DNA from: a virus
DNA length: 33,431 nucleotides
IMG/VR virus record: IMGVR_UViG_3300022659_000035
Strand: one strand, 5' to 3'
Shown: positions 17,974-33,431 of the stretch, in pieces
Position numbering within the stretch: the first letter of the stretch is position 1
How the letters are laid out: each line of letters begins with the position of its first letter
The notes under the pieces: model-generated
The model's input: only the letters and a program-made list of their open reading frames with translations
Database searches by the model: none
Told to the model about the DNA's origin: nothing
Position numbers and translations under genes: made by a program

Positions 17974-17975
17974 GG

Positions 17976-19543: not shown

Positions 19544-19552
19544 AACGAGTCC

Positions 19553-20100: not shown

Positions 20101-20624
20101 GCCCGATTCCTCCCCTCGTTGGCCGCCAGGCCGGTGAACAGGCCGGCAAACGGGTTGCGCTGCTGCTGCAGCGGCACCCAGCGTTCGCCAGACCACACCT
20201 TCTTCACGGTGCTCGCACTGATGCCGTACTGCACCGCCACGTCCACCAGCTCAGCCCGGCCCTTGAGCGATCGCACCTCATCGGCCAGCACCTGCGTCAG
20301 CTTCGTCCCTGGGTGAATGGCTTTGGCCCTGTGCCCGCCGGCCACTTTTCGGGCCACCACATCAGGGCGCTTGACAGCTTCTCGCACCACCCGGGCCTTC
20401 GTCCTGGCTTCCAGGTGCGCCACGCACAACGGCCGCCCACAGGTACACGACACCACCATGCTTCGTGGCAGTGGCGGGTTGTCTGCCTCCCACACCCACT
20501 GCCGAACCGTCCGCTTGCGGTACATCGGGTGGCCCTTGTTGGTCGTGCTGCCCGTCCAGATCAGGCAGTCGCCATCCTCACGGGTAAACCTCGCCAGCAT
20601 GGCCATTACTTCGTCCTTCGTCAT
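20097..20624 (-). CDS. Degenerate His-Me-finger (HNH-like) zinc module fused to a C-terminal HTH; candidate regulator
   Basis: 175 aa with DGDCLIWTGSTTNKGHPMY and VVSCTCGRPLCVAHLE. This resembles the CxxW..G / VxHxCxNxxCxNPxHL pattern but lacks the usual His. The C-terminal HTH reads ELVDVAVQYGISASTVKKVWSGERW. Confidence 0.6.
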   Translation of the reverse strand: MTKDEVMAMLARFTREDGDCLIWTGSTTNKGHPMYRKRTVRQWVWEADNPPLPRSMVVSCTCGRPLCVAHLEARTKARVVREAVKRPDVVARKVAGGHRAKAIHPGTKLTQVLADEVRSLKGRAELVDVAVQYGISASTVKKVWSGERWVPLQQQRNPFAGLFTGLAANEGRNRA

Positions 20625-20887
20625 TGACTCACCATCTCCACTGCTTTGTTGATCGCTTGCAACTCATTCATGCGGCGCAGCTTCCAGCGCATCCGCGTCC
20701 CATGCCAGCCATCCGGTCCACGGTGGCACGCCGGGCACAAGGGCATCGAGGCAAACCACAGCCCCTGTTCTGGCTCATGCACCTCGCTGGGCCCCGGCGC
20801 GTCACACACCACGCAGGGCAGTTGCGCCAGCTTTTCGATATGGCGGCGCTCGGCTGCCGTAGGGGCCGGCTTGTTCTTGCTTTTCAT
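20621..20887 (-). CDS. Ref-like or small HNH-type nuclease
   Basis: 88 aa with ERRHIEKLAQLPCVVCDAPGPSEVHEPEQG and MPLCPACHRGPDGWHG. ATGA coupling at both ends. Confidence 0.55.
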   Translation of the reverse strand: MKSKNKPAPTAAERRHIEKLAQLPCVVCDAPGPSEVHEPEQGLWFASMPLCPACHRGPDGWHGTRMRWKLRRMNELQAINKAVEMVSQ

Positions 20888-21297
20888 GCGTGCGGCTCCA
20901 GGTCGTAGAACGTCACGCCCAGCTCGGTCGCTGCATAGGCCTCCACCTGGTCGCTGAACTCGCAGAACTGCGCCGTGGTCAGCCCCGTGGAGCTTTGCCC
21001 CACCACCTCACCGTTTGGCAGCTCCACCACGCCGATGAACTTGCGCTTGAACAGCTCGTGCCAGGTTTCGGCTGGGTACAGCCTGCCGTTCACGGTCGCC
21101 TGTTCGGCCACCTGCTTCAGCACCCCATTGCCCCAGTAGCGGCGGTTCTGCTTCGGCGTGCGCTTGCGCCGGGTCACGGTCAGCACCCAACGGCCGCCCG
21201 CCTGCATCACCGTGGCCAGGAACGGGAACAGCTGCGCCTTGATCGCCGCCCAGGCTTGCTGGCGGTTGTGCAACTCAATCACCAGCTGCTCAGCCAT
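20884..21297 (-). CDS. ninB: NinB/Orf-family recombination mediator
   Basis: ATG at 21297 with a GGAGG RBS. The protein contains RRKRTPKQNRRYWGNGVLKQVAEQ and GLTTAQFCEFSDQVEAYAATELGV. Confidence 0.65.
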   Translation of the reverse strand: MAEQLVIELHNRQQAWAAIKAQLFPFLATVMQAGGRWVLTVTRRKRTPKQNRRYWGNGVLKQVAEQATVNGRLYPAETWHELFKRKFIGVVELPNGEVVGQSSTGLTTAQFCEFSDQVEAYAATELGVTFYDLEPHA

Positions 21298-21646
21298 GCG
21301 CCACCTCCACCCGCACAAACCCACCCACCTCGCCGGCCGGGGCTTTGCGAATCGTCAGTGACCACTTGGAATCGTCCACACGCAGGGCGTCGGCCAGGCC
21401 ATCCAGGCCCGACTTCATACGCGCCAGCGCGTTGTCCAGGTCGTACTGGCGCCGGGTTGGTGGCACGAACGTCAGCGTCAGGTGCAGCTTGTCGGCGTTC
21501 ATCGGATGGGCGCCCTGGCTCGCGGCCGTCCAGGCGCAGGCCTCTCGGTACTGGCGCTTCAGCTTGGCCAGCTTGGCCCAGTGGTTGCGCGCGTTGGGGC
21601 TCAGGCCCGCCGGCGGCCATGGCAGGGTGATCGTCAGACTCAACGC
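21290..21646 (-). CDS. rusA: RusA-family Holliday-junction resolvase
   Basis: ITLPWPPAGLSPNARNHWAKLAKLKRQYRE, plus DLDNALARMKSGLDGL. I prefer the TTG at 21646 (GGAGG 5 nt upstream) over the track start at 21655. Confidence 0.8.
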   Translation of the reverse strand, partial: ALSLTITLPWPPAGLSPNARNHWAKLAKLKRQYREACAWTAASQGAHPMNADKLHLTLTFVPPTRRQYDLDNALARMKSGLDGLADALRVDDSKWSLTIRKAPAGEVGGFVRVEVAHG

Positions 21647-21834
21647 GACCTCCAAAACATCTCGCGGGCCTCCACCGACTCTGGCGCGGCCTCATTCCAA
21701 TCGGCACAAAAACAGCCCGCCACCGGGATGCGGCCAGGGTGCTTCAGGCAAAAGCCGAACCCTTCCTTGGCCAGCGCCTTGTTGCGTTGGGCCAGCCCCC
21801 GAACGTCCATGTGTGCACAGTCGCGGCAGTTCAT
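21640..21834 (-). CDS. Small Cys-rich (zinc-finger-like) protein
   Basis: ATG at 21834 overlaps the helicase stop (ATGA). The protein begins MNCRDCAHMDVRGLAQRNKALAKEGFGFCLKHPGRIPVAGCFCADW. Confidence 0.55.
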   Translation of the reverse strand: MNCRDCAHMDVRGLAQRNKALAKEGFGFCLKHPGRIPVAGCFCADWNEAAPESVEAREMFWRSR

Positions 21835-22820
21835 CGGTAATCCGGCGTCCTGTGGTGGGGGTAAATGGGAAAGAACAACGGCGGATCGCCCTCGTTGCTC
21901 ACGTACTGGCCCGCGTCGCGGTTGAACCACAGCGCAATCGTGGGCTCACCCTCGCCGCTGCCCTCGTAGTTGCGCTGCTTGCGGCAAAACAGGATCTGGT
22001 CGGGCTCGGCCTGCTTCTGGTTGCGGCCCTCCTTTCGATCCTCTTCCTTGCCCTTGTTGCGCCACACCAAAAACAGGTTATCTGGCTGGTCCACGATGGC
22101 GCCCGAACCCTTCACGTCGCCCTTGTCAGGCCGCTCGGTTTCCTTCGGTGGCTTCTTCAGGTGGTGAACGATGTGGACATGCACCCCGTAGTCCTGGGCA
22201 ATCACCATCATCTCGTCCACAAACGCCTTCTGGCCGTTGTAGTCGTCTTCAGCCTTCACGCACTTTGCCAGGTTGTCCACAAAGATGTGGTTGATGCCCA
22301 TCTCCTTGGCGCAGTAGCGGGCCATGCCGATAACCTTTGTGCCTTCGACGCTGCCAACGTGGTCGTACAGCCACAGGCGGCCATCAGTCCATTCGCTGAA
22401 CTCGTCGTACAGCTCCTCGATGGCCTCGATACCGCCGTCGCCCTGAAACTCCGGCGAAAACGGGTTCATGCCCACAAACATGCGCGCCATCCGCTGCATG
22501 TTCACCACCGGCTTCAGCTCAAAGCTGGCAATCACCACCTTCTCGCCCTGCCCCATGAGGGACAGCGCCACCTGACTCGTCACCTGGCTCTTGCCGTGCC
22601 CGTTCTGCCCAGCCCAGATCGTCACCTCACCCTTGCGGAAATCGAAGCTCTCGCGGGTCTTCTCCCAGGGCAGATACACCATCCGCTGGTCACGCCGGCC
22701 CCTCAGCCGGTCCTTCAGCGCCTGCTTGTAGCTCGATGCCGGCCGCACCTTCGTCTGCGCGTCCGTCTCGCGCAGGTAAAGGTTGAAGTCGATCATGTCG
22801 TCGTCAAAGATCGCAGCCAT
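21831..22820 (-). CDS. DnaB-like (RecA-fold) replicative helicase
   Basis: I take the start at 22820 (MAAIFDDDM) with an AGGAGGTG RBS. Walker A GQNGHGKS, Walker B HIFVDNL, and a KGSGAIVDQPDNLF motif. Confidence 0.8.
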   Translation of the reverse strand: MAAIFDDDMIDFNLYLRETDAQTKVRPASSYKQALKDRLRGRRDQRMVYLPWEKTRESFDFRKGEVTIWAGQNGHGKSQVTSQVALSLMGQGEKVVIASFELKPVVNMQRMARMFVGMNPFSPEFQGDGGIEAIEELYDEFSEWTDGRLWLYDHVGSVEGTKVIGMARYCAKEMGINHIFVDNLAKCVKAEDDYNGQKAFVDEMMVIAQDYGVHVHIVHHLKKPPKETERPDKGDVKGSGAIVDQPDNLFLVWRNKGKEEDRKEGRNQKQAEPDQILFCRKQRNYEGSGEGEPTIALWFNRDAGQYVSNEGDPPLFFPIYPHHRTPDYR

Positions 22821-23167
22821 CACGCCACCTCCTGGACGGGCTTCACCCACACCTGAGACCAGCCAGACTGCTCCCAATGCCTCCGGTCGTCCTGCACATG
22901 GCAGGCGGCCACAGCGGCGGCGCCTGCGGCGCGGCACTGCTCAAACAAAGCCTTGGCGCGGATCTCCGACTTGGCGCTGATGCTCACCCGAAGGCCGACC
23001 AGGAACCGCAGGTCCAGCAGCTGGATCACATCGCCATCGGTGCAAATCGTCACCGCATCCCCGGGGTTGTCAAACCAGTCCGTGGCGCAGCTCCAGTCGT
23101 TGACGAAGACTGTGCGGGGCGCCTTGCCAGCGCGGCGAAGGTCGATCAATCGTTCGTGGCCACGCAT
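22820..23167 (-). CDS. Hypothetical protein between the replication initiator and the helicase
   Basis: ATG at 23167 (MRGHERLIDLRRAGKAPRTVFVNDW). TGATG overlap with the upstream stop. High GC3. Confidence 0.6.
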   Translation of the reverse strand: MRGHERLIDLRRAGKAPRTVFVNDWSCATDWFDNPGDAVTICTDGDVIQLLDLRFLVGLRVSISAKSEIRAKALFEQCRAAGAAAVAACHVQDDRRHWEQSGWSQVWVKPVQEVA

Positions 23168-23994
23168 CAAATCGCTCCCGCAAAAATTGGGTTCGAACGC
23201 CAGTTGCAAGCGGCGTTCGTCACCTCTGGGCCCGCCACCTCGTCCTGCCAGCGGCCCTGGTTCAGCCAGGTCGCCGGGTGCGGAATGAACTGCCCACCCT
23301 CCTTGCGCCACTCGTCCGTTTGACTCTGCAGCGCCACCGCCGCCAGCATGGCCGCCAGCAACCGCTCGTCCGGTTTTCGTTTTTCAAACGCTCGCTTGGC
23401 CGCGTCTTTGCCAACCTTCCGGGGGTACGCTCTCCAGAACCGCTCGAACCTCTCCACAACCCCCGGCGATTTCGCTGGGGGTTTGGGGGTATTCAGTGAA
23501 TCAGGATTCAGTGAATCAGGATTCAGGGTGTTTTTGCCCTGAGTCTTAACGGGTGGGTCACAGGTGTCTAACAGTGAGTCACCGTTACCTTCTTCTGTTT
23601 TAACGTTATTTTTCCGCTTTGAACCAGTGACATAACCGTTACTGCCCCGTTCATGCACAGTCATCGCACCGGTTTCATCCGGCAACTCACTGTCTTTTTC
23701 GGTGCCGTGCGGGGTCTGGTGCTTGTGAAAGTTGACGATGGAAATGACGCGCACACCGCCAACCTCGTAGCGCGTGACGAAACCATTTCGAGCCAACTCT
23801 TGCAGCCCGCTGTCCACGTCAAAGGCATCACACGGAAACAGCTCCATCTTGATGCGCTTCGGGCGATCCTCAATGCGGCCCTCGCGGTCGGCAAGGCACC
23901 ACAACCCAATGAACAGCAGCCGGTCGAAAGCCCCCATCTCCACAAGAAGCTCGTTCTTGAAGAATGACGGCTTGATGTTTCGTGCTCTTGCCAT
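23167..23994 (-). CDS. Replication initiator or replisome organiser (lambda O-like role)
   Basis: MARARNIKPSFFKNELLVEMGAFDRLLFIGLWCLADREGRIEDRPKRIK at the N-terminus and FERFWRAYPRKVGKDAAKRAF at the C-terminus. The central low-complexity linker carries DNA iterons. Confidence 0.75.
   Translation of the reverse strand: MARARNIKPSFFKNELLVEMGAFDRLLFIGLWCLADREGRIEDRPKRIKMELFPCDAFDVDSGLQELARNGFVTRYEVGGVRVISIVNFHKHQTPHGTEKDSELPDETGAMTVHERGSNGYVTGSKRKNNVKTEEGNGDSLLDTCDPPVKTQGKNTLNPDSLNPDSLNTPKPPAKSPGVVERFERFWRAYPRKVGKDAAKRAFEKRKPDERLLAAMLAAVALQSQTDEWRKEGGQFIPHPATWLNQGRWQDEVAGPEVTNAACNWRSNPIFAGAI
23491..23527. repeat. Tandem 15-bp iterons (ATTCAGTGAATCAGG, 2.5 copies) inside the initiator gene; candidate origin of replication
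   Basis: Exact copies at 23491-23505 and 23506-23520, with a partial copy at 23521-23527. Each unit holds the palindrome ATTCA-G-TGAAT. An AT-rich stretch lies at about 23591-23625. The repeats encode LNPDSLNPDSLN. Confidence 0.6.
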
Positions 23995-24293
23995 CAAACC
24001 CTCCCGGCCACTTCTTCACGGTCGTGTTCCGCAAAGTCGGCAGCCAACATTGCGGCGCTCAGGTACTTGCATTCCTCCTGGGAGCCAATGAAGGCGCCCG
24101 CCACAAACGAGTCGCGCAGCACGACCAGCAGGTCGCAAACTTCGCCATGCTCTTTGGCCGCTGCGCGCAACCGCTCAACAATCTTGATTTGCTCTGGGCT
24201 CACGTCCATCTCCATGGCATCGCAAAAATGGCCAGCGGCAGGCAGGCGATGGAACTGCTTTTCGGGAGCTACCCTAGCCGTGGTCAAAACCAT
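23994..24293 (-). CDS. Hypothetical early protein
   Basis: ATG at 24293 (MVLTTARVAPEKQFHRL). TGATG overlaps at both ends. Confidence 0.55.
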   Translation of the reverse strand: MVLTTARVAPEKQFHRLPAAGHFCDAMEMDVSPEQIKIVERLRAAAKEHGEVCDLLVVLRDSFVAGAFIGSQEECKYLSAAMLAADFAEHDREEVAGRV

Positions 24294-24589
24294 CACACCC
24301 CCACCCATCCCCTGGCCTCCGTGCCATTGCCAAACGCACGACGAAACCAGCCGCCCTGCTCCGGCCGGCGGATCACGCCTTGCTCGGCCAGCCGCGTGTA
24401 AATCGTCCCGGTGCAGCGGAAGTCGCGCGACGGAATGATTCCGCGGCGGATCGCCTCGGTGGTCACGTCCTCGCTGGAAAAGAAGCGGCCACGGTGCTTG
24501 CGAGCGAACTCGATCACCAAGCCCTCGTAGTCCTGCTCAAAGCTGCGAGGCTCATCTACATCAAACATGGGGAGTTGTTGAGCGCTCAT
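24293..24589 (-). CDS. Hypothetical early protein
   Basis: 98 aa (MSAQQLPMFDVDEPRSFEQDYEGLVIEFARKHRGRFFSSEDV). ATGA coupling to the upstream gene. Confidence 0.6.
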   Translation of the reverse strand: MSAQQLPMFDVDEPRSFEQDYEGLVIEFARKHRGRFFSSEDVTTEAIRRGIIPSRDFRCTGTIYTRLAEQGVIRRPEQGGWFRRAFGNGTEARGWVGV

Positions 24590-24804
24590 TCCGCATGTCC
24601 TCCTGATGCATCCGGCATCAGCGGATTGCCGCGCAGCACGCGGGCGATCACACTGACCTCATGCGTTACCTTCTTCACCTCGGCCTCCAGCACCTGCACC
24701 ACGTAGGCGTGGCGGTCCATGCCTTTGGCCATGGCGATGCCGTCCAAGGCAGCAGCCAGGTCGTGCGGCACCAGTCCGCGCAGCTCGGTCTTGTCGTTGG
24801 CCAT
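24586..24804 (-). CDS. Ribbon-helix-helix-like small DNA-binding protein, in the position lambda cII occupies
   Basis: 72 aa. LRGLVPHDLAAALDGIAMAKGMDRHAYVVQVLEAEVKK fits a strand-helix-helix pattern. It starts 3 nt after the cro stop. Confidence 0.55.
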   Translation of the reverse strand: MANDKTELRGLVPHDLAAALDGIAMAKGMDRHAYVVQVLEAEVKKVTHEVSVIARVLRGNPLMPDASGGHAE

Positions 24805-24807
24805 GGG

Positions 24808-25008
24808 TCAGGCCTTGGCGGGCTTTCGGCTGCGGCTCACGGACTTCAGCAGCTCGGCCAGCTTCAGGCCGTCGTCTGCGCCCGTAGGCACTTCGCCAGA
24901 CTCCCAGCGGGAGATGCGCGGTTGAGGGATACCGGTGCGTCTGGAAATTTCAGACTGCGACATGGGAAGCGCGCGGAGGCGCTTGATAAGGTCGGTGACT
25001 TGGCTCAT
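24808..25008 (-). CDS. cro: Cro-like HTH repressor
   Basis: ATG at 25008. The protein is MSQVTDLIKRLRALPMSQSEISRRTGIPQPRISRWESGEVP. It is divergent from the CI-like gene, and I reject the track's long N-terminal extension. Confidence 0.75.
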   Translation of the reverse strand: MSQVTDLIKRLRALPMSQSEISRRTGIPQPRISRWESGEVPTGADDGLKLAELLKSVSRSRKPAKA

Positions 25009-25080
25009 GCGGGCGAGTTTATGCGGTTCCGTATAACTTGGCAAGTCCCTACCGCATGATGGCTTTGGCATAGTCACAAC
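25009..25080. promoter_or_regulatory. Divergent immunity control region (OR-like)
   Basis: The operator palindrome TTATGCG-GTTC-CGTATAA is at 25019-25036. On the minus strand, TTGCCA (25044-25039), 17 nt, then TAAACT (25021-25016) lies 7 nt before the cro ATG. On the plus strand, CATAGT (25069-25074) lies 6 nt before the cI ATG. Neither gene has a Shine-Dalgarno sequence. Confidence 0.6.
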
Positions 25081-25836
25081 ATGAATACCCGCGCTCTGCT
25101 CAAGGCCCTGATGGACCGCGCCGGCGACAACCCGAACTCGCTGGCAGCCAAACTCAACCAGGCCACAAAGCAGCCCCAAATCCACCGATTCATCACCGGC
25201 GAGGCCAAAGAGCCGCGGCGCAGCACGCTCCAGCCGGTGGCCGACCACTACAAGGTCAACATCGAAGCCTTCTACGACGAGGAACTGGCACGCGAACTGC
25301 TTGATATGATCGAGCAGGGTAAACCTTTACCCACCTTCGCGCGGGCCACCGCGCCATCACCTCTCGCGCGCTTCGGGCCCCCTGTGGCCACATTTGGGGT
25401 GGCCGGCGCTTTTGTCAGCAATCCAAGCACCTCCAAAAAGGTGTGGGTCGTAGGGAAGGGCCAAGGCGGCATGCCTGAAAGAATCTGGACGGATGGGGAC
25501 CACCCCGTAGGAATCACCGACGAGTTTGCAGAGGTGCACAGCACCGACCCGCACGCCTTCCTGGTACGTGTGGAGGGCTCCAGCATGTACCCCAAGTTTG
25601 AGGACGGCAACTTCGTCCTGGTCGAGCCGGGCACCGAGCCCGAGCTGGAGGACTGCGTGTTGGTGCGCCTCAACTCAGGCCACACCCTCATCAAGCGCCT
25701 GCTGTCACGGCGCCACGGGTATCGGCTGGGCAGCTTCAACGATCCGCAGGTGCTGGAGTACCCGCGCGAGGACGTGACCTGGTGCTACTACGTGGCCCAC
25801 GAAGTGCCGCGCCGCAAGATAAAGAGTCGCCACTGA
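25081..25836 (+). CDS. cI: CI/LexA-type repressor (N-terminal HTH plus C-terminal S24 autopeptidase)
   Basis: 251 aa. HTH region NSLAAKLNQATKQPQIHRFITGE. S24 motifs VEGSSMYP (Ser) and LIKRL (Lys). Confidence 0.85.
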   Translation: MNTRALLKALMDRAGDNPNSLAAKLNQATKQPQIHRFITGEAKEPRRSTLQPVADHYKVNIEAFYDEELARELLDMIEQGKPLPTFARATAPSPLARFGPPVATFGVAGAFVSNPSTSKKVWVVGKGQGGMPERIWTDGDHPVGITDEFAEVHSTDPHAFLVRVEGSSMYPKFEDGNFVLVEPGTEPELEDCVLVRLNSGHTLIKRLLSRRHGYRLGSFNDPQVLEYPREDVTWCYYVAHEVPRRKIKSRH

Positions 25837-25853
25837 AGGCAAAAAGGGAGAAC

Positions 25854-26092
25854 ATGAAAAACACATCGCACTGCTTTTCGCGCTGATCCCTCTGGTGGTG
25901 CAAGCCGGGTTCGGCGGCATGGGCAACGTGGAGTACGACGGCGCCAGCGCATCCACCGGCGGCGGCATCTTCTTCGTACTCCTGGGTGCAGCGGCCGGCT
26001 TCATTTGGTCCGAATTCAAGGGATACCAGGCCGGGTTCGGCATCACCGTCGGCGCCGTGCTGGGCGTCATCGCACAGATTCTGTTGACCTGA
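25854..26092 (+). CDS. Small Gly-rich membrane protein (GlsB/YeaQ/YmgE-like), a moron downstream of cI; apparent 1-nt frameshift in an A5 run
   Basis: GGGAGA RBS, then ATG at 25854. With A5 (25857-25861) read as A6, the protein becomes MKKHIALLFALIPLVVQAGFGGMGNVEYDG...GFGITVGAVLGVIAQILLT. As sequenced, only the GTG ORF 25895..26092 is open. Confidence 0.55.
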
Positions 26093-26093
26093 C

Positions 26094-26180
26094 GTGTTCA
26101 TCCAATTAGGGCACATCGTCGTCTGGTTGCTGGCCATCGCGGCGGCGGCCGACTTGCTGGCTTGGGTTGGGCGCTTCTAG
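26094..26180 (+). CDS. Possible 28-aa hydrophobic peptide
   Basis: A GTG at 26094, 1 nt after the upstream stop, gives (M)FIQLGHIVVWLLAIAAAADLLAWVGRF. GC3 is high. There is no RBS. Confidence 0.3.
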   Translation: MFIQLGHIVVWLLAIAAAADLLAWVGRF

Positions 26181-26203
26181 CCCCGCACAGCCGCCACACA
26201 CCA

Positions 26204-26224
26204 CCCGCCTCGGCGGGTTTTTTC
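26204..26224 (+). terminator. Intrinsic terminator ending the cI-moron transcript
   Basis: CCCGCC-TC-GGCGGG, followed by seven T (26218-26224). Confidence 0.7.
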
Positions 26225-26242
26225 TTGGCCGGAACGCACTAC

Positions 26243-26316
26243 GTATGCGACTACGTAGTTTTTTCCGACTTTTTATGCGTTTACGTATTGACTTGTTTTA
26301 TACGGCTTCGCATAAT
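26243..26316 (+). promoter_or_regulatory. PL-type early-left promoter with three operators
   Basis: TTGACT (26288-26293), 17 nt, then CATAAT (26311-26316). OL1 is TTATACG-GCTT-CGCATAA (26298-26315). OL2 is TTATGCG-TTTA-CGTATTG (26273-26290). OL3 is GTATGCG-ACTA-CGTAGTT (26243-26260). All follow the same consensus as the site at 25019-25036. Confidence 0.7.
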
Positions 26317-26322
26317 TCACCC

Positions 26323-26418
26323 ATGCCGCAGCGAAAAGCATCAGACGGCAGCAAGGCGAAGGCAGAGGCGCGAAGGCATACCGTAGCGCAGTGGGTAGTC
26401 CAATCTCCACCACTCTGA
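26323..26418 (+). CDS. Short arginine-rich ORF with no 5' leader (31 aa as sequenced, 86 aa if fused to 26391..26582 by a 1-nt correction); candidate N-like protein
   Basis: The ATG is 6 nt after the -10 hexamer. The protein is MPQRKASDGSKAKAEARRHTVAQWVVQSPPL. The downstream ORF in the adjacent frame is basic and low-complexity. GC3 is only moderate. Confidence 0.35.
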   Translation: MPQRKASDGSKAKAEARRHTVAQWVVQSPPL

Positions 26419-26656
26419 AGGCCCCAGGGACAGCGCCAGCACAAACGGGCGTCACAAAGTACGTGTTGAGGCATTCCGGGATGCCAAGAACAGCAAAGCC
26501 CGACCGGCATTCGCAAGAGTGCCACCAATCAAGCCGCCTCAAGCGGCGAGACGGTTTGATTGGTAGCCGCGCCACGGGTTAGCGCCGTGGTCTCCTTTGG
26601 TTGTTGACATTGCACACGCTGCTTCATGCGAGCGGCTGCCAATCCTTACCTCCCTG

Positions 26657-26715
26657 CCCGGCCCAAAAGCCGGGGTTTTCGCCCCCAGCGCCCTCACAGC
26701 CTGGGGGCTTTTTTT
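26657..26715 (+). terminator. Tandem intrinsic terminators directly before the first early-left gene
   Basis: The first, CCCGGC-CCAAAA-GCCGGG plus GTTTT (26657-26679), is weak. The second, GCCCCCAG-12 nt-CTGGGGGC plus seven T (26681-26715), is strong. A GGAG RBS follows at 26716. Confidence 0.7.
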
Positions 26716-26725
26716 GGAGCGCAGC

Positions 26726-27043
26726 ATGAACTACGCAGCAATGCCCGGCTTTGGCGATCCCGCCACCTGGGGCGGCCGCAGCCCCAGCGCCAGCAGCCCG
26801 CACGACTACGAAGGCCCGGTGTTTTTCCCCATGACCATCGGCATGGCCGGCGCCCGGGTCATCGTCATGGGCCGAACCAACGGCTACGAGCTGGACTACA
26901 TCGACGAAGTGATGTTCGATGGAATGAACATCCTGCCCGCCCTCGACTCCTGCCAGCACATCGACATCCGTAACCACTACGAACGCCACTCAGCACAGAT
27001 CAACCGGGCCGCCATGCAGCCCTCGACGGAGTACGACGCATGA
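26726..27043 (+). CDS. Hypothetical early-left protein
   Basis: ATG at 26726 with GGAG 6 nt upstream. The protein begins MNYAAMPGFGDPATWGGRSPSASSPHDYEGPVFFPM. Confidence 0.65.
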   Translation: MNYAAMPGFGDPATWGGRSPSASSPHDYEGPVFFPMTIGMAGARVIVMGRTNGYELDYIDEVMFDGMNILPALDSCQHIDIRNHYERHSAQINRAAMQPSTEYDA

Positions 27044-27306
27044 CCGCCCACCGACTCATCAACCTGGCCCTGCTGGCGTTTCTCACAGTCGCGCTCGGCG
27101 CCAGCTACCTGCTGGACGAACCGCAGCCCTACACCGCCGCCCAGGCCGACGCCATCAAGGCCGCCAAGGCCGAAGCCCGCCGCGAGGCCGGCGCCCGTGA
27201 CCTCTGCAAGGAGCTGCACGGCCCCCAGGCCGCGCATTTATGGGACGCCTCCGGCTCCCTGGTCTGCATCAGTCGTCGCGGCGAGGTCGTCGCGGTCAAT
27301 CAATGA
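27040..27306 (+). CDS. Small protein with an N-terminal TM or signal anchor
   Basis: 88 aa (MTAHRLINLALLAFLTVALGASYLL). ATGA overlap with the upstream gene. Confidence 0.6.
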   Translation: MTAHRLINLALLAFLTVALGASYLLDEPQPYTAAQADAIKAAKAEARREAGARDLCKELHGPQAAHLWDASGSLVCISRRGEVVAVNQ

Positions 27307-28070
27307 AGGAAACCGAAATGAGCAACATCATCCCCTTCCAAGACGTTCAAGGCATGGCCCAAGCCATCGCTAAGTCCGGCCTGTTCGGCATGAAGACGCC
27401 AGACCAAGCCCTGGCCCTGATGCTTGTCGCCCAAGCCGAAGGACAGCACCCTGCCACCATCACCCAGGATTACGACATCATCCAGGGCAAGGCTGCGCGC
27501 AAGACCCACAGTGTCCTGGCCCGGTTTCAGCAAATGGGCGGCACGGTCGAATGGCACGAACTGTCCGACACCATTGCCGACGCCAGCTTCGCGCACAAAG
27601 CGGGCGGCAAGCTGCGCATCCAGTGGACCTTTGAGCAGGCCAAGAAAGCTGGCCTGACGGGCAAAGACAACTGGAAGAACTACCCTCGCGCCATGCTGCG
27701 CGCCCGGTGCATTGCCGAGGGCATCCGCGCGGTGTACCCCGCCGCGCTGGGCGGGATGATGGTCAGCGAGGAAGCGCAAGACCTGCCGCACCACGACGCG
27801 CCACCCAAGCAGATCGACCCGGCCACCGGTGAAATCCAACAGGCGCAGACCTCCCGCCCCGCCCTGGAGTCCTACCCCGCTGATCGCTTTGAAGCCAACC
27901 TGCCCAAATGGCAAGGGCTTGTGGAGTCTGGCCAGAAAACGCCGGCCGACATCGAGGCGATGTTGAGCAGCAAGGCCGCGCTCAGCGAAGAGCAGCGCCG
28001 CGCCATTCGCAACCTGGGCGTCATCGACGTGCCCAGCGAAACCGATCAATTCGTTCAAGACATGGAGTAA
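27303..28070 (+). CDS. recT: RecT/Red-beta-superfamily single-strand annealing protein
   Basis: AIAKSGLFGMKTPDQALALMLVAQAEGQHPATITQDYDIIQGK, plus KAGLTGKDNWKNYPRAMLRARCIAEGIRAVYP. It is paired with a YqaJ exonuclease. An alternative start is at 27318. Confidence 0.65.
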   Translation: MKETEMSNIIPFQDVQGMAQAIAKSGLFGMKTPDQALALMLVAQAEGQHPATITQDYDIIQGKAARKTHSVLARFQQMGGTVEWHELSDTIADASFAHKAGGKLRIQWTFEQAKKAGLTGKDNWKNYPRAMLRARCIAEGIRAVYPAALGGMMVSEEAQDLPHHDAPPKQIDPATGEIQQAQTSRPALESYPADRFEANLPKWQGLVESGQKTPADIEAMLSSKAALSEEQRRAIRNLGVIDVPSETDQFVQDME

Positions 28071-28073
28071 GCC

Positions 28074-29477
28074 ATGAAGGTTCACAACGTCATCCAAGGT
28101 TCGCCCGAGTGGCTGCAACTGCGCGCCACCGCATTCACCGCCAGCGAGGCGCCGGCCATGATGGGGTGCAGCCCCTACATGACCCGCACCGAACTGCTGC
28201 ACCAGAAACACACCGGCCTGGCGCCCGAAGTCCCAGCCGCCACGCAGCGCCTGTTCGATAACGGCCACGCCACCGAGGCGCAATTCCGCCCGATCGCCGA
28301 GGACATCATCGGCGACGACCTGTATCCGGTGACAGGCTCCATCGAACTGGACGGCATGCTGCTGCTGGCCAGCTTCGACGGCTTGACGATGGACTACTCC
28401 ATCGGTTTCGAGCACAAGCTCTGGAGCGAAACCAATGCCGCCGTCATCGAGATGGAAGGCGAGCCGCCTATCTACCACTGCTGGCAGATGGAGCACCAGA
28501 TGCTGGTGTCCGGGGCAGAGCACATCCTGTTCGCCACGAGCGACGGCACGGCCGAGAAATCCCTGGTGTGCCGCTACTTCAGCAAGCCCGAGCGCCGCGC
28601 CGCGCTGATCGCTGGCTGGAAACAGTTTGCCGCCGACCTGGCCGCCTACGTGCCCAGCACTGTGGCCGAGGCAAAGCCCACCGGCAAGGCGCCCGACACC
28701 CTGCCCGCCCTGCGCATCGAAGTCACCGGCATGGTGACGGCATCGAACCTGGCCGAGTTCAAGGAAACCGCCCTGACGGCCATCCGGGGCGTCAACCGCG
28801 ATCTGACGACCGACCAGGACTTTGCCGACGCCGAGCAATCGGTGAAGTGGTGCGAAGAGGTGGAATCGCGCCTGAAAGCCGCCAAGGAACACGCCCTGTC
28901 CCAGACGGCCAGCATCGACCAGTTGTTTAAGACCATTGACGACATCAGCGCCGAGGCTCGCAAGGTTCGGCTGGAGCTGGACAAACTGGTCAAGGCCCGC
29001 AAGGAAGAGTTGCGCAACCAGATCGTTGCCGCGGCACAGTCGGCACTGCGGGCGCACGCCCTCAAGCTGTCGGCCCGCATCGGCATGACGCTGCCCAATG
29101 TGATCGGCGCCGACTTTGCAGGCGCCATCAAAGGCAAGCGCAGCCTGGCCAGCATCCAGGACGCGGTGGACACCGAACTGGCTCGGGCAAAGATCGCCGC
29201 CAACGAGCTGGCCGACTTGATGGAGGCCAACATCAAGACGCTGCGCGGCGAGGCGCACGACTGGGGTTTCCTGTTCCCTGACCTGGCGTATGTGGCCGGT
29301 AAGCCTTCCGAGGACTTTGCCAACCTACTGGCCGCGCGCATTGCTGCGCACAAGCAGGCGGAAGAGCAGCGCCGGCAGCGCGAAGAGCAGGCCGAAGCCG
29401 CGCGGAAAGCCCGCGAGGCCGAAGCCGCAGCCAAGGCGCCCAGGTGGTGGAGAAGGCAGCAACCGCCGCTCCGGTAG
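28074..29477 (+). CDS. YqaJ-type (PD-(D/E)XK) recombination exonuclease with a long coiled-coil C-terminal extension; the reading frame is broken near 29439
   Basis: The N-terminus is MKVHNVIQGSPEWLQLRATAFTASEAPAMMGCSPYMTRTEL, with ..FDGL..EHK... The remaining ~270 aa are helical and Ala/Glu/Lys-rich. The last 11 aa (RWWRRQQPPLR) look out of frame. Confidence 0.75.
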   Translation: MKVHNVIQGSPEWLQLRATAFTASEAPAMMGCSPYMTRTELLHQKHTGLAPEVPAATQRLFDNGHATEAQFRPIAEDIIGDDLYPVTGSIELDGMLLLASFDGLTMDYSIGFEHKLWSETNAAVIEMEGEPPIYHCWQMEHQMLVSGAEHILFATSDGTAEKSLVCRYFSKPERRAALIAGWKQFAADLAAYVPSTVAEAKPTGKAPDTLPALRIEVTGMVTASNLAEFKETALTAIRGVNRDLTTDQDFADAEQSVKWCEEVESRLKAAKEHALSQTASIDQLFKTIDDISAEARKVRLELDKLVKARKEELRNQIVAAAQSALRAHALKLSARIGMTLPNVIGADFAGAIKGKRSLASIQDAVDTELARAKIAANELADLMEANIKTLRGEAHDWGFLFPDLAYVAGKPSEDFANLLAARIAAHKQAEEQRRQREEQAEAARKAREAEAAAKAPRWWRRQQPPLR

Positions 29478-29704
29478 TAGCTGCACCGGCTCCGGTGGTG
29501 GTGGGCGAGGCAGTCGCCACGATCAAGCTGGGCCAGATCAACGAGCGCCTGTCGCCCATCCAGATCACCGCCGCCGGCCTGGCCGAGCTGGGCTTCCAGC
29601 CGGTGGGCAAGGAAAAGGCCGCGGTGCTCTACGCCGAAAGCCAGTTCCCGCGCATCTGTGTGGCACTCATCAACCACATTCAGGGCGCCGTAGCCCTGGC
29701 CTGA
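29444..29704 (+). CDS. Probable C-terminal continuation of the exonuclease ORF after a 1-nt frameshift
   Basis: Reading CCC 29439-29441 as CCCC gives ..AAAKAPQVVEKAATAAPVVAAPAPVVVGEAVATIKLGQINERLSPIQITAAGLAELGF.. in one frame, ending at 29704. Confidence 0.55.
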   Translation: MVEKAATAAPVVAAPAPVVVGEAVATIKLGQINERLSPIQITAAGLAELGFQPVGKEKAAVLYAESQFPRICVALINHIQGAVALA

Positions 29705-29880
29705 CCCAACACACAGCGGGGGAGCCATTACCCGAGCCGAGCAACGGTCACTTGGCAAAAAGCAGATATGGCGAACCACCAGCGCCCGCGCGTGAGTTCA
29801 CGCCGGTGGGTAGCGACAGGGGGCGGCTCCTGAAATAGACGGCCCTCAATAACTGAACGACCACCCCATTCAACCCCCCT

Positions 29881-29903
29881 GGCCCGCCACCGAGCGGGCT
29901 TTT
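29881..29903 (+). terminator. Possible intrinsic terminator
   Basis: GCCCGC-CACCGA-GCGGGC followed by TTTTC. There are only four T. Confidence 0.4.
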
Positions 29904-29910
29904 CACGCCC

Positions 29911-30088
29911 ATGAAAAAGAAAACACCTACATCCCCGAGCCTTGGACCAACGAAACCGCCCGCCCCGAAGGCGAGCACCTAAACGCTACGGCAGCCTGCA
30001 GGCAGACGGCACCGTCAAGCCCTACCGGGCACCCGTGCACGGCTGCGTCGGGCAGCTGGCCGACAAGCGTGGGAATGCGAGGGACTGA
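29911..30088 (+). CDS. Possible 59-aa protein, recoverable only with two A-run corrections
   Basis: ATG at 29911. Reading A5 (29914-29918) as A6 and A3 (29981-29983) as A4 gives MKKENTYIPEPWTNETARPEGEHLKRYGSLQADGTVKPYRAPVHGCVGQLADKRGNARD. The 29984-30088 segment has about 90% GC3 in that frame. There is no RBS. Confidence 0.35.
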
Positions 30089-30092
30089 AACT

Positions 30093-30371
30093 ATGGCCCA
30101 TTTATCCGAAGTAGCGATGCCGACGCGAATGAGCCGGCAGGAATATGAACAGCGCAGCACTGAGTTTCAACCTCGCGGCCAAGACCTGCCGCAGGCCAAG
30201 CTGATGGACCTGGACGTAATCGACATCCGCAGCGCCGCCCGCCAACGCGCCGCCCTGCTCAAGCACATCCGCGAAAACCTCAGTAACGCCGCGCTCTGCC
30301 AGCGTTACGGCATCCACCGCCGCAACCTGGAAAAGATCCTCAGCAGAGAAACGTGGAGTCACCTGCCATGA
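30093..30371 (+). CDS. Small HTH DNA-binding protein
   Basis: ATG at 30093 with GAGGGA 8 nt upstream. The protein contains AKLMDLDVIDIRSAARQRAALLKHIRENLSNAALCQRYGIHRRNLEKILSRETWSH. Alternative starts are at 30069, 30075 and 30117. Confidence 0.65.
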   Translation: MAHLSEVAMPTRMSRQEYEQRSTEFQPRGQDLPQAKLMDLDVIDIRSAARQRAALLKHIRENLSNAALCQRYGIHRRNLEKILSRETWSHLP

Positions 30372-31756
30372 ACGATTACAGCGAATTTGTCCGCACCAAA
30401 CTGATGGCCGTGCCGCCCGTTGGCATTACCAAAGACGTGCCGCTAATAGAGGGCCTGTTCCCGCATCAGGTAGCTTTGGTCAAATGGGCACTGCGCCGCG
30501 GCCGATCCGCCATCTTTGCCGATACTGGCCTGGGCAAAACCCGCATGCAGGTCGCCTGGGCCGATGTGGTGCAGCGTGAAACCGGGGGCGACGTTCTGAT
30601 ACTGGCACCTCTGGCGGTGGCCCAGCAGACGGTCGAGGAAGCCGCAGCGGTCGGGGTGAAGATCACCCATGCACACGAAGCTGAAGATGTGCGACCAGGC
30701 ATCAACATCACCAACTACGACCGCTTGCACAAGTTCGAAGCCAGCCGGTTCGTTGGGGTTGTATTGGATGAATCCAGCGTCATCAAACACCACACCAGCA
30801 AAACCTTACAGGCCTTGCTTGACGCCTTCCGTCTTACGCCTTACCGGCTGTGTGCCACCGCCACCCCAGCCCCGAACGACTGGACAGAACTTGGCACCCA
30901 TGCTGAGTTTTTAGGAATCCGCACCCGCGCCGAAATGCTGGCCGAGTTCTTTGTGCATGACGGCGGCGACACCCAGACATGGCGCATTAAAGGCCATGCC
31001 CGCCAAATCTTCTGGCGCTGGGTGGCCAGTTGGGGGGTGATGTTACGAAGCCCTGCTGATCTGGGCTATGACGCATCGGCCTACAACCTGCCGCCCTTGC
31101 AGGTACACCAGCACACTGTCGAATCGGACCACGACCAGCAGGAAACCGGGTTTCTATTCGCCATGGAAGCCACCGACCTGATGGAGCGCCGAAACGCTCG
31201 CAAAAACAGCCTAGAGCAGCGCGTCAAAGCCTGCGCTGAACTGGTCAACGCAAGTGATGAACCTTGGGTAATTTGGTGTGACCTGAACGCTGAAGGCGAT
31301 GCACTGCGAGCAGCCATACCCGATGCGGTGGAGATACGCGGCGCAGACGACGAAGCCACCAAGGAGCAACGCCTGCACGACTTTGCCCACGGGAAGATCC
31401 GCGTGCTGGTCACCAAGGCATCCATCGCCGGATGGGGTCTGAACTGGCAGCACTGCCGCAACGTCGCATTCGTTGGGGTGACGGATTCCTGGGAGGCGTA
31501 TTACCAGGCTGTGCGCCGGTGCTACCGCTTCGGCCAAAAGCGCGATGTGCATGTCCACATATTCGCCAGTGAGCAGGAAGGGTCCATTGTGGCCAACCTC
31601 AAGCGCAAAGAGCAAGACGCCAAACAAATGGCCGAAGCACTGGCCACCGAAGTGCTGGATTCCGTCAAGTCCGAACTGTTCGGGCAGACCCGAGAGAGCA
31701 ACGAATACCAACCCAGGCAGGCCATCAACCTGCCGTCATTTTTGAGGCAAGCATGA
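30368..31756 (+). CDS. SNF2/DEAD-like superfamily-2 helicase
   Basis: ATG at 30368 (ATGA overlap). Motif I ADTGLGKT, motif II VLDESSVIK, and helicase-C motifs GLNWQHC and RCYRFGQKRDVHV. Confidence 0.8.
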   Translation: MNDYSEFVRTKLMAVPPVGITKDVPLIEGLFPHQVALVKWALRRGRSAIFADTGLGKTRMQVAWADVVQRETGGDVLILAPLAVAQQTVEEAAAVGVKITHAHEAEDVRPGINITNYDRLHKFEASRFVGVVLDESSVIKHHTSKTLQALLDAFRLTPYRLCATATPAPNDWTELGTHAEFLGIRTRAEMLAEFFVHDGGDTQTWRIKGHARQIFWRWVASWGVMLRSPADLGYDASAYNLPPLQVHQHTVESDHDQQETGFLFAMEATDLMERRNARKNSLEQRVKACAELVNASDEPWVIWCDLNAEGDALRAAIPDAVEIRGADDEATKEQRLHDFAHGKIRVLVTKASIAGWGLNWQHCRNVAFVGVTDSWEAYYQAVRRCYRFGQKRDVHVHIFASEQEGSIVANLKRKEQDAKQMAEALATEVLDSVKSELFGQTRESNEYQPRQAINLPSFLRQA

Positions 31757-32640
31757 ACGTCATAGACCAAACCCATGGCGAGAACTTCAGCATCTACAAC
31801 GGCGATTGCGTGGAAGTCATCAAAGGCATCCCCGATACCTCGATTGACTACTCCATCTTTTCCCCGCCGTTCGCCAGCCTGTACACATACAGCAACAGCC
31901 CACGCGACATGGGCAACGTGCGCAACGACGAAGAGTTCTTCGAACATTTCGAATTTCTGGTGGCCGAACTACGTCGGGTCATGAAGCCTGGTCATAACGT
32001 CAGCTTTCACTGCATGTTGATGCCTACCAGCAAAGAACGTGACGGCTACATCGGCTTGAAAGACTTTCGCGGCGACCTGATCCGGGCATTCCAGAAGCAC
32101 GGGTTCATTTACGCATCTGAGGTCTGCATCTGGAAAGACCCAGTGACTTCCATGCAGCGCACCAAGGCCTTGGGACTGCTGCACAAGACCGTGCGAACCA
32201 ACGCCTGCATGTCACGCCAAGGCATCCCAGACTATCTGGTGACGATGCGCGCCCCAGGCGAAATGGTGGACAAAGTGACCCACACCCCGGAACAGTACCC
32301 GGTGGACAAGTGGCAAAAGGTGGCCAGCCCGGTATGGATGGACATAGACCCATCCGACACCCTGCAATACCGCAGCGCCCGCGAGCATGACGACGAACGC
32401 CATATCTGTCCGTTGCAACTAGAAGTCATCCGGCGCGGCATTGACTTGTGGACCAACCCTGGCGATGTAGTGCTATCCCCTTTCACCGGCATCGGGTCGG
32501 AGGGCTTTGTCTCTATCCAGATGGGACGCAAGTTTGTCGGGGCCGAACTGAAGCAAAGCTACTACCAGCAAGCCGCGCGAAACCTGCAAGCCGCTGAGAC
32601 TGAGCAGACACAGGATCTGTTTGCCATCGAAGAAACATGA
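31753..32640 (+). CDS. DNA methyltransferase, N6_N4_Mtase family, beta-class motif order
   Basis: Motif IV SPPF near the N-terminus and AdoMet motif SPFTGIGSEG near the C-terminus. ATGA overlap with the helicase gene. Confidence 0.8.
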   Translation: MNVIDQTHGENFSIYNGDCVEVIKGIPDTSIDYSIFSPPFASLYTYSNSPRDMGNVRNDEEFFEHFEFLVAELRRVMKPGHNVSFHCMLMPTSKERDGYIGLKDFRGDLIRAFQKHGFIYASEVCIWKDPVTSMQRTKALGLLHKTVRTNACMSRQGIPDYLVTMRAPGEMVDKVTHTPEQYPVDKWQKVASPVWMDIDPSDTLQYRSAREHDDERHICPLQLEVIRRGIDLWTNPGDVVLSPFTGIGSEGFVSIQMGRKFVGAELKQSYYQQAARNLQAAETEQTQDLFAIEET

Positions 32641-33095
32641 CCCGCCGCCACCTCGCCAACCCGCTGCGCAACCCCGTCGCGGCCGCCATCATCAAGCGCC
32701 AGATCGTTGCCGACCTCCGCGCCCTGCAAACCGACGCCATGTTGCACGCGCTCATCGGCGCCAACGACGCAGCGCTCATCCACCACGCCGGCCGGCTCGC
32801 CTACATCACCGCCGACGCCGCCCGCGCCTGCCAGCTGCCCCAAGACGCGCCCGACATGCGCCATCGTCGCCGGCCATGGCCCACCGCCCTGGCCGAACTC
32901 GCCGCCAACGCCCGGCGAACAAAGCCCTGGCACCGCCTCGCCATCACCAGCGGCCTCAACGCCTGCCAGCGCCTGCTCGACCAGTGCAGCCCCTGGGCCA
33001 TCGGCACCGGCGCCCTCAAGGTCGACCAGCTCATCAACAGCGCCGAAGGCCTCACCGTTCACCACATCACCCAACCCAGCACCCAGCCCGCATGA
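32637..33095 (+). CDS. Hypothetical protein
   Basis: 152 aa with high GC3. ATGA overlaps at both ends. Confidence 0.6.
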   Translation: MTRRHLANPLRNPVAAAIIKRQIVADLRALQTDAMLHALIGANDAALIHHAGRLAYITADAARACQLPQDAPDMRHRRRPWPTALAELAANARRTKPWHRLAITSGLNACQRLLDQCSPWAIGTGALKVDQLINSAEGLTVHHITQPSTQPA

Positions 33096-33378: not shown

Positions 33379-33431
33379 ATCACCGACTGCCCATAGAGAG
33401 GCTGAGACTGCCAAGGCACACAGGGGATAGG
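33379..33431. other. Synthetic sequencing adaptor (reverse complement of 1-53)
   Basis: ATCACCGACTGCCCATAGAGAGG followed by CTGAGACTGCCAAGGCACACAGGGGATAGG. Confidence 0.9.

Follow-up and report, generated by a model that had tools for sequence, protein, structure and literature searches.

An apparently non-coding, structured leader RNA in the N position of a lambdoid prophage belongs to a family of exchangeable early-left modules

To our knowledge, little is understood of how early terminators are passed in lambdoid phages other than the E. coli models, the exceptions being the N/nut and Q systems and the single case of the put sites of phage HK022. Here we examine the corresponding region of IMG/VR virus record IMGVR_UViG_3300022659_000035, a lambdoid prophage of about 61-63% G+C whose whole 33,431-nt stretch is henceforth termed the window. 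In its N slot, between the repressor operon and the early-left genes, the window holds a conserved RNA module outside all Rfam families. This leader of about 393 nt is predicted to start at a repressor-controlled PL-type promoter and to end at an intrinsic terminator (T2) that abuts the ribosome-binding site of the first early gene, orf105. That the interval is a functional non-coding RNA module with a real terminator at its end is, in our view, very probable. We further lean towards a more specific reading, in which the interval is a repressor-controlled non-coding leader RNA with a terminated product resembling a small RNA (sRNA), its terminator gating the early-left operon. The family has no counterpart in Rfam 15 or in the literature searched; the kinds of mechanism discussed here, a leader gate and a phage sRNA, are already known.

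Homologous leaders were sought through orf105, through an 18-nt pattern derived from the most conserved hairpin (H1), and through the 72-aa gene that follows cro. The resulting family comprises about 8-10 lineages among the comparison phage and prophage sequences, which are designated by L-numbers: the window together with L217, which has the same operators; L139; L009, which is identical to L010, L011 and L138; L013; L219; the group of L032, L135, L136 and L137, with three different operator sets; and L209 with L210. L201 carries a short version of the leader and L202 a version of about 1 kb. The shared plan consists of a 5' domain, hairpin H1, a long hairpin P2, a CU-rich stretch (CCUCCCUG), hairpin T1, terminator T2 and a ribosome-binding site (Table 1). 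Among GenBank phages, no DNA match was found to the window leader, the L032 leader or two short-form H1 regions.

Both edges of the module can be placed by comparison. Upstream, similarity starts directly after the -10 hexamer, whatever operators precede it: the window and L139 share 48% identity over the 75 nt upstream of the transcription start and 98% over the 120 nt downstream, and for L032 and L136 the corresponding values are 75% and 99%. Downstream, similarity stops after UUUUGGAG, whatever gene comes next. In L217, the window's leader is joined to another first gene right after UUUUGGAG, and the first genes of the window and L032 show no similarity to each other. All lineages keep the succession of U run, GGAG, 6-7 nt and AUG, which thereby stands before at least three unrelated first genes. 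In L211-L215, members of the same phage group, PL lies directly before the first gene with no leader between them, which indicates that the leader is an optional, exchangeable module. As judged from these sequence comparisons, the module is swapped as a whole between phages that differ in their operators and in their first genes. It moves independently both of the immunity region and of the genes behind it.

Exchange is also apparent inside the module. In L139, the 5' half equals that of the window as far as H1 and then continues into an L013-like P2a. Likewise, L202 (923-2245, minus strand) follows the PL leader of L201 as far as H1 and from there a mid-operon element of L201, with two genes deleted (the L201 elements compared lie at 690-1275 and 1851-2100, minus strand). 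Because the joint in L202 falls exactly inside an H1-type hairpin, this hairpin acts as a junction for module exchange.

The H1 stem is identical in 8 of 8 aligned leaders. Its outer pairs are compensated in L201 (GCCCUUC-GCAA-GAGGGGC), in L209 (GCGAUUC-AUAA-GAGUCGC) and likewise in L202, where the loop is GAGA, while the inner UUC/GAG stays constant. P2 is lineage-specific in sequence with its pairing kept (13-20 pairs); its first part, P2a, differs yet is fully paired in L139, L009, L013, L032, L209 and L219. At the 5' end, the stem of hairpin HP1 reads CCGCA/UGCGG in L009, CGAC/GUCG in L013 and L032, and GGCUCAC-GAAA-GCGAGCC in L209, and is absent in L219. The motif CCAAGAACA behind hairpin H0 occurs in the window, L139, L009, L032 and L136, and L209 carries CCAGAACA. 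All lineages keep the CU-rich core YCUCCCYUG.

For the 3' module, a covariance model built from six sequences matches seven leaders outside its training set (E = 5e-8 to 1e-5). In the alignment, pairing is complete (100% of cells), and two-sided changes are seen in 10 of the 12 pairs (4 of the 4 modelled pairs of T1, 6 of the 8 of T2), which is reached by 0 of 500 shuffles; the covariation score is 0.516, compared with at most 0.057 for slid-partner controls. We take this as support rather than proof, because the alignment is model-fitted and the independent lineages are few. A first-pass annotation of the window had named conserved structure or covariation in related leaders as a test of its reading, and covariation is seen for T1 and T2 in this model and for P2 between lineages. 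The structured, terminated leader that it had described is supported and can be extended to a family.

Within the window leader, folding against shuffled sequences gives z = -6.9 for H1 plus P2a (26506-26564) and -3.9 for 26506-26645, compared with -1.5 for the whole leader and +1.4, that is, no excess structure, for the 5' 143 nt. Together with flat third-position composition (see below), the value for H1 plus P2a bears out the earlier description of an interval poor in coding signal yet structured. The hairpins proposed at 26470-26485, 26525-26563 and 26572-26590 are real by folding and repeat analysis, and H1 itself had been missed. Two terminators had been claimed. The second is canonical, with an 8-bp stem, seven U and an adjoining GGAG; the first (26657-26674, followed by GUUUUC) was not called by the scan and is treated here as hairpin T1. 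T2 is the only canonical plus-strand terminator downstream of PL in the window.

Two features of the leader invite further comment. The purine-rich tandem hexamers near the 5' end, which may serve as a protein-binding platform, have counterparts in the AAGGC-type repeats of the L032 leader (AAGGCG, CAGGCA) and of the leader of Pseudomonas phage PseuP_224. In the core, a pairing of 26558-26570 with 26632-26644 (13 nt, 92% complementary) competes with P2a. The segments CCAAUC (26524-26531), GAUUGG (26558-26563) and CCAAUC (26639-26644) allow two mutually exclusive pairings, P2a or an extended P2b, and in L139 the whole triple is shifted to CCAACC/GGUUGG/CCAACC. From the sequence, this relation could reflect either a conformational switch or a duplication.

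Transcription of the leader is predicted to depend on the phage repressor. The PL-type promoter TTGACT-17-CATAAT is the top promoter-like site within 24500-27500 and also within 17000-33431. It is flanked and overlapped by three copies of the operator motif TATGCG-N3-YACGTA, and a fourth copy (25020-25033) lies over the leftward PR-like promoter, so that PL is under the same operators as PR. The motif has six matches in the window against 1.6 expected, a number that 0 of 100 shuffles reach. These results sustain the first-pass description of a near-consensus promoter blanketed by three repressor operators, as well as its PL-type assignment, since the promoter is repressor-controlled and stands in a lambda-like layout of cro, cI, membrane ORF, terminator and OL/PL. 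It had also been argued that the early genes cannot be expressed without read-through of the terminator. This holds for T2: there is no room for a second promoter before orf105 and none was detected, so downstream expression needs read-through. A candidate internal promoter for the 3' module, TTGACA at 26604, was rejected, as it lacks a usable -10 hexamer and the promoter scan found none.

The first-pass annotation had favoured a different occupant of this slot, an N-like arginine-rich protein, on the strength of a 31-aa ORF that one extra base, lost to a sequencing error, would extend to 86 aa. The ORF is present exactly as claimed (ATG 26323, stop 26416-26418), but a gene is not indicated. 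G+C at third codon positions (GC3) is 0.78-0.85 in neighbouring genes compared with 0.56-0.63 in all ORFs within 26273-26729 on both strands and 0.56 in the 31-aa ORF, and it is flat also in 6 of 6 homologous leaders tested. A sequencing error is unlikely because two independent assemblies, L139 and L217, agree with the window in both frame and stop. The ORF is unconserved in L009, L013, L032 and L219. Half of the homologous leaders lack a start codon, those of L013, L032 and L219 beginning without any ATG, GTG or TTG. Uncompensated 1-nt indels separate the near-identical leaders of L032, L135, L136 and L137, and those of L135 and L136 relative to L032 fall within sequence that is 96-99% identical. 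Searches of Pfam and PHROGs with four peptide versions gave no match up to E = 1. The supposed arginine-rich motif is the translation of the purine-rich tandem hexamers at 26353-26378, which recur as RNA motifs in other leaders, and amino-acid similarity is confined to nucleotides conserved in this way.

Some observations nevertheless count for a frameshifted or recoded N-like gene. The peptide KAKAEARRHTVAQW presumably resembles the lambda N motif RRRERRAEKQAQW. In L009, the start ATG is in frame with a 69-codon ORF that shares its terminal TAG with frame 2 of the window, although its peptide is unlike the window's beyond MPQR, and the reading frame across H1 is open for 70-150 codons in most members. 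Yet stop codons are rare in the leader because the region is T-poor (16-19% T), and other frames are likewise open over 60 codons; inspection by eye of 26323-26418 revealed no X XXY YYZ slippery site. On this sequence evidence, the leader region is read as non-coding and as encoding no N gene; the N-like protein reading is largely refuted, and a recoded version of it is extremely improbable. A gene on the opposite strand was also rejected: the 100-aa ORF in the window and the 192-aa gene called in L009 have a GC3 of only 0.55-0.57.

The leader also differs from catalogued RNAs. In line with the earlier view that it belongs to no recognisable known family, Rfam 15 contains no family that reaches its gathering score in 26243-26725 or in the homologous leaders, and the H1 sequence was not found in the literature searched. 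At permissive thresholds, the top match of the 3' module in the window, L013, L139, L136 and L009 is anti-hemB (RF02837), followed in the window by the lower matches ncS54 and Betaproteobacteria toxic sRNA. Matches to mir-8499, chrB-a and Trp-leader were dismissed as one-off noise; only anti-hemB recurs. Anti-hemB was proposed as a non-coding RNA with a terminator at its end (PMC1950547) and is the expressed sRNA ncS04 of Burkholderia cenocepacia (PMC5688073). Sequence and layout show parallels: both are Betaproteobacterial and combine the CU-rich CCUCCCUG with an internal hairpin, a U-rich linker and a terminator hairpin with a U tail. In the anti-hemB model, however, a first hairpin presents the CU-rich stretch in its loop; the leader is without that hairpin, and its module forms the 3' end of a repressor-controlled phage RNA of about 390 nt fused to a ribosome-binding site. 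The CU-rich "double-hairpin" or toxic small RNAs of Burkholderia (RF02278) share the same Betaproteobacterial arrangement of CU-rich stretch, hairpin and terminator. In B. cenocepacia, CU-rich unpaired stretches of sRNAs are predicted to pair over ribosome-binding sites, and overexpression of ncS27 slows growth (PMC5688073).

The leader has the layout of an Hfq-type sRNA, with its own promoter (PL), an unpaired conserved seed, and T2 with seven U. The seed contains ACCUCC, the anti-Shine-Dalgarno hexamer. We envisage that once the repressor leaves its operators, transcription would start at about 26323, and most transcripts would stop at T2, yielding an early RNA of about 390 nt made only after derepression. 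Its 3' end would resemble the CU-rich, ribosome-binding-site-targeting sRNAs of Betaproteobacteria, with trimming to about 75 nt possible. Only transcripts that read through T2 would express orf105, RecT, the exonuclease, the helicase and the methylase, and for this reason the leader would gate the operon. The H1-P2 core is a likely handle for a factor, for RNA polymerase itself or for RNA processing, any of which could set the balance between termination and read-through.

The two outputs carry separate weight. Action of the terminated RNA in trans is a serious possibility that falls slightly short of being favoured, and we place active regulation of read-through through H1-P2 at the same level; they are compatible and not exclusive. 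The sRNA-like 3' end speaks for trans action. The fusion of U run and GGAG-N6-AUG before unrelated genes, and the occurrence of an H1-type element before each of two L201 terminators, speak for a gate in cis. We describe the element as a dual-output leader because neither a conserved antiterminator pairing nor a partner protein was found, and antitermination by the leader is raised here, from sequence, as a hypothesis. The fallback claim of the first-pass annotation, an independent regulatory RNA of about 0.4 kb, comes close to the comparative data, which delimit a conserved leader family from the start to T2. Should the module control read-through, it would represent a novel device for antitermination or attenuation; should it act in trans, it would be an induction-only phage sRNA whose anti-ribosome-binding-site seed could reprogramme host translation. 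In either case, the outcome is a defined family with defined helices that is open to experiment.

Several points weigh against this combined reading. Both ends of the transcript, as well as how efficiently T2 terminates, are deduced from sequence, and the covariation counts come from few independent lineages in a model-fitted alignment. The anti-hemB scores are sub-threshold (33.4 bits for the window and 32.1, 30.4, 24.0 and 23.0 for the homologues, against a gathering score of 49.5), and the first hairpin of the model, with its CU-rich loop, is deleted in the cmscan alignment of the window. A target search inside the phage sequence returned nothing interpretable. A plain sRNA would need neither the terminator-ribosome-binding-site fusion nor a conserved, structured 5' part of 300 nt. 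On the side of the gate, no partner protein for the leader was identified, and no conserved alternative pairing between terminator and antiterminator was found in the family: the 3' strand of T1 could pair with the 5' strand of T2 over only 3-4 bp, and in L032 this pairing is absent. A classical attenuator built on it, and likewise a long-range helix between the CU-rich stretch and G-rich hexamers upstream, could form in most members; both were set aside because such pairings are short, are not kept in L032 and L136, and would be expected by chance. As for partners, the most widely shared proteins near H1 are the repressor and RecT, whose co-occurrence reflects position only, and the 72-aa ribbon-helix-helix-like gene was rejected because it is also present in the leaderless L211-L215 and has no detected homologue in L135 and L137.

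Some alternatives keep only one of the two outputs. In the first-named direction, the interval would be a purely trans-acting sRNA gene behind PL, in which read-through is leakage and H1-P2 serves stability or processing. A comparable case is DicF, an sRNA that lies mid-operon in the dicB operon of prophage Qin, is excised by RNase, and is silenced with its operon by a CI-like repressor. Under this reading both would be sRNAs in an operon expressed upon derepression, but the leader RNA starts at the promoter and has no Rfam DicF match. The sub-threshold anti-hemB match in all members tested, the order of an unpaired CU-rich stretch, hairpin, U-rich linker and terminator with U tail, and the dispensability of the leader in L211-L215, where PL lies directly before the first gene, all suit such a gene. 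What it does not account for is the fusion of U run, GGAG and AUG conserved before unrelated genes, or the large conserved 5' and core structure, which in the related type B elements (see below) is enlarged by an elaborate extra domain; we therefore consider it rather unlikely. Conversely, a phage or host protein could bind H1 in the manner of boxB and allow read-through of T2, as a form of factor-dependent antitermination or attenuation. The H1 stem is invariant while neighbouring helices covary, which fits sequence-specific recognition, and the loops of lambda and P22 boxB fold as GNRA-like structures. H1 itself has a 7-bp stem with a true GNRA tetraloop (GCAA) rather than a 5-bp stem with a pentaloop. 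The terminator-ribosome-binding-site fusion is typical of cis-regulatory leaders, and PL-leader hairpins followed by boxA (GACGCUCUUUAACAAG) in the related prophages L001 and L006 indicate that Nus-factor antitermination exists in this phage group. Compared with lambda nutL/N, the leader occupies the same slot in the same gene order, with a GNRA-type hairpin and a terminator to be passed, but the window is without a conserved N ORF, boxA or a nutR-like second site. Searching for CGCTCTTWA with at most one mismatch (the lambda reference being CGCUCUUA-like) gave 0 matches in 24000-26800 and 4 elsewhere in the window against 6.1 expected, so that neither the leader nor the rightward operon has a boxA, and no second H1 is present. 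No conserved ORF follows the site, the first genes are unrelated between lineages, and the only co-travelling protein, that of the 72-aa gene, fails on the distribution given above. Such a factor is, on balance, unlikely.

Two further alternatives dispense with a protein. In HK022, put sites of about 70 nt with two stem-loops occur in two similar copies downstream of PL and PR (PMC9378689). By analogy, nascent H1-P2 could make RNA polymerase resistant to T2 and to later terminators. The leader shares with putL and putR the N position, a PL upstream, a terminator downstream and two adjacent stem-loops, and put likewise fills this slot in place of a protein antiterminator. H1 and P2 are adjacent hairpins (0-1 nt apart) spanning 59-140 nt, H1 plus P2a is very stable by the folding given above, put is also composed of two stem-loops downstream of PL (PMC9378689), the element sits past the early promoter and ahead of the first terminator, and no N- or Q-like protein was recognised in the window. 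As a claim of family membership, the put-like interpretation offered in the first-pass annotation does not hold, since blastn-short of the leader against the HK022 PL and PR regions gave only chance 8-13-nt matches (E > 1), and no second copy of H1 exists in the 33-kb window with up to 3 mismatches allowed; the rightward operon has an int-alpA motif instead. The leader is also much larger, with its core 180 nt past the transcription start rather than just downstream of it. Moreover, L201 has an H1-type element upstream of each of two terminators, which would be needless with one processive site, and the window's early-left operon contains one strong terminator only. A self-sufficient put-like antiterminator is accordingly quite unlikely. 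Still less probable is a riboswitch-like element, with H1-P2 (plus P3 in larger relatives) as the aptamer and T1/T2 as the expression platform. The order of structured domain, terminator and ribosome-binding site, the GNRA loops and multi-helix domains, and the conserved P3 core directly before the CU-rich/T1/T2 segment in L201 and L202 would be in keeping with it. There is, however, no Rfam riboswitch match even at permissive thresholds and no conserved alternative pairing between the core and T2, and the downstream genes are unrelated and non-metabolic; we rate it as very unlikely.

The leader family is linked to unannotated structured RNAs of Pseudomonas-type phages, which are far more numerous. 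The pattern GGCATTC-NNNA-GAGTGCC matches more than 119 IMG/VR contigs, where about 100-200 matches are estimated by chance for a 15-base pattern. GNRA loops are found in 54 of 120 copies compared with 12.5% expected, and many copies are intergenic, just past a stop codon, and have covarying stem extensions. In L014-L132, which are unrelated phage contigs of 32-68% G+C, GGCAUUC-GNRA-GAGUGCC is often positioned 20-60 nt ahead of the following ribosome-binding site; neither Rfam nor the literature searched yielded an entry on this hairpin. In a large subset, termed type B, a long P2 begins at the very next base and is followed by a conserved P3 core (GAUGCAGAUGAAUGCGCAGGCUGAUGCGC ... AAGCCGGAGAUCAGCGCCGGCCAUCUGCAUC). 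Type B elements occur in unannotated gaps of 62 further contigs and several Pseudomonas phages; examples are L021, L025, L030, L033, L060, L061, L063, L066, L078, L079, L085 and L142-L198, as well as Pseudomonas phage PseuP_224 (L134 2950-3310). Their sites are early-left operons downstream of cI in Pseudomonas-type temperate phages, and the repressor is the protein most often common to H1 loci (22 loci). When these elements are anchored on P3, a hairpin at the H1 position is kept with variable sequence, and 41% have an intrinsic terminator within 600 nt downstream, against 0.08 expected. None reaches a gathering score in Rfam 15, and the elements are unannotated in GenBank records. The P3 core forms a three-way structure, and some type B elements lie directly after tRNA genes or carry a tRNA-like insert.

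Type B and window-type leaders are tied together by L201 and L202, in which the P3 core stands directly before a window-type CU-rich/T1/T2/GGAG module. A broader view, which we offer as speculative and somewhat unlikely, is that the window leader is the small form of an undescribed modular RNA superfamily in the early-left operons of temperate phages of Beta- and Gammaproteobacteria, where it would replace N/nut in timing delayed-early expression. Its members would consist of an H1-type hairpin, P2, an optional large P3, a C/U-rich stretch, T1, T2 and a ribosome-binding site, with H1 doubling as the module-exchange junction. They might embody a new form of RNA-directed terminator read-through, or be large non-coding RNAs with a catalytic or sensing core.

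Table 1. Features of the PL region and its surroundings in the window.
Feature	Position	Strand	Basis or remark
int-alpA RNA motif (RF02996)	24217-24284	minus	39.4 bits against a gathering score of 35.8
72-aa ribbon-helix-helix-like gene	24589-24804	minus	directly after cro
HTH cro-like gene (HTH_3)	24808-25005	minus	
S24 repressor gene (cI)	25081-25836	plus	
Small membrane ORF, 65 aa	25895-26092	plus	
28-aa hydrophobic ORF (MFIQLGHIVVWLLAIAAAADLLAWVGRF)	26094-26180	plus	between the 65-aa membrane ORF and the cI-operon terminator
Intrinsic terminator closing the cI operon	26203-26224	plus	terminator scan; upstream boundary of the PL region
Three operator copies, TATGCG-N3-YACGTA	26244-26257, 26274-26287, 26301-26314		flank or overlap the promoter hexamers
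PL-type sigma-70 promoter TTGACT-17-CATAAT	26288-26316	plus	score 10/12
Whole leader RNA, about 393 nt, read as non-coding	26323-26715	plus	start placed at about 26323; 3' end at the U run of T2
31-aa ORF (MPQRKASDGSKAKAEARRHTVAQWVVQSPPL)	26323 (ATG) to 26416-26418 (stop)	plus	judged not a gene
Hairpin HP1 (UGCCG ... CGGCA, loop with CGAAAAGC)	26324-26350	plus	folding
Purine-rich tandem hexamers AAGGCG AAGGCA GAGGCG (cg) AAGGCA	26353-26378	plus	sequence reading; unstructured stretch
Hairpin H0 (GGCAU-UCCGGG-AUGCC, 26470-26485), then motif CCAAGAACA	26470-26492	plus	
Hairpin H1, GGCAUUC-GCAA-GAGUGCC, 7 bp, GNRA loop	26506-26523	plus	most conserved element
Hairpin P2a, 13 outer pairs ACCAAUCAAGCCG/CGGUUUGAUUGGU	26524-26564	plus	starts directly after H1
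Hairpin domain P2b (inner hairpin 26570-26590)	26565-26644	plus	repeat analysis and folding
CU-rich stretch CCUUACCUCCCUG, contains ACCUCC	26644-26656	plus	unpaired in the 3'-module fold
Hairpin T1 (CCCGGC-CCAAAA-GCCGGG, 26657-26674) and U-rich linker GUUUUC	26657-26680	plus	
Intrinsic terminator T2 (GCCCCCAG ... CUGGGGGC, then U7)	26681-26715	plus	terminator scan; 8 GC-rich pairs at 26681-26708, U7 at 26709-26715
GGAG ribosome-binding site, 6 nt and ATG of orf105	26716-26728	plus	downstream module junction; GGAG from 26716 adjoins the U run

The surroundings of the leader follow lambda, whose order of cI, rex, terminator, OL/PL, [N] and recombination genes the window matches. The hairpin of the cI-operon terminator, CCCGCYTCGGCGGG, with its T run also precedes PL in L006, L007, L009, L013, L032 and L139. 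From ATG 26726, the early-left genes are orf105, orf88, RecT, a RecE-like exonuclease, a helicase and a methyltransferase. No protein record is identical to the product of either cI or orf105 of the window. Repressor relatives in IMG/VR and GTDB have only the C-terminal S24 domain in common, and their leaders differ.

On the rightward side, int-alpA is the only Rfam match in the window at gathering score and lies between a 98-aa gene and the replication initiator; the motif ends in a U run and has a tR1-like position. It is absent from the other leader-bearing phages scanned, and a link to HP1 through a shared 9-mer (CGAAAAGCA) was dropped on this ground and because chance sharing of such a word is, by estimate, not rare. 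A tRNA and tmRNA scan of the window found none. The prophages L001 (about 4870-4960) and L006 (about 4040-4130), which are related and one of which resides in Caballeronia, have a different long non-coding PL leader, in which two hairpins precede the boxA in an order like the boxB-boxA arrangement of rrn operons. Over 19 nt, the L013/L032 5' end also matches L200, a leader with an rrn-like boxA, but this was left unused, as about 3 such matches are expected by chance.

Neither Pfam nor PHROGs has a family that matches the 72-aa ribbon-helix-helix-like protein. Its metagenomic counterparts, at 60-100% identity, number more than 60 and come from phages with many different immunity regions, and the position of its gene suggests a CII-like or other early regulator. 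Finally, the 28-aa hydrophobic ORF between the membrane ORF and the cI-operon terminator has a gene-like third-position G+C content and a related ORF in L217, and it is possibly a second small membrane protein made in the lysogen.

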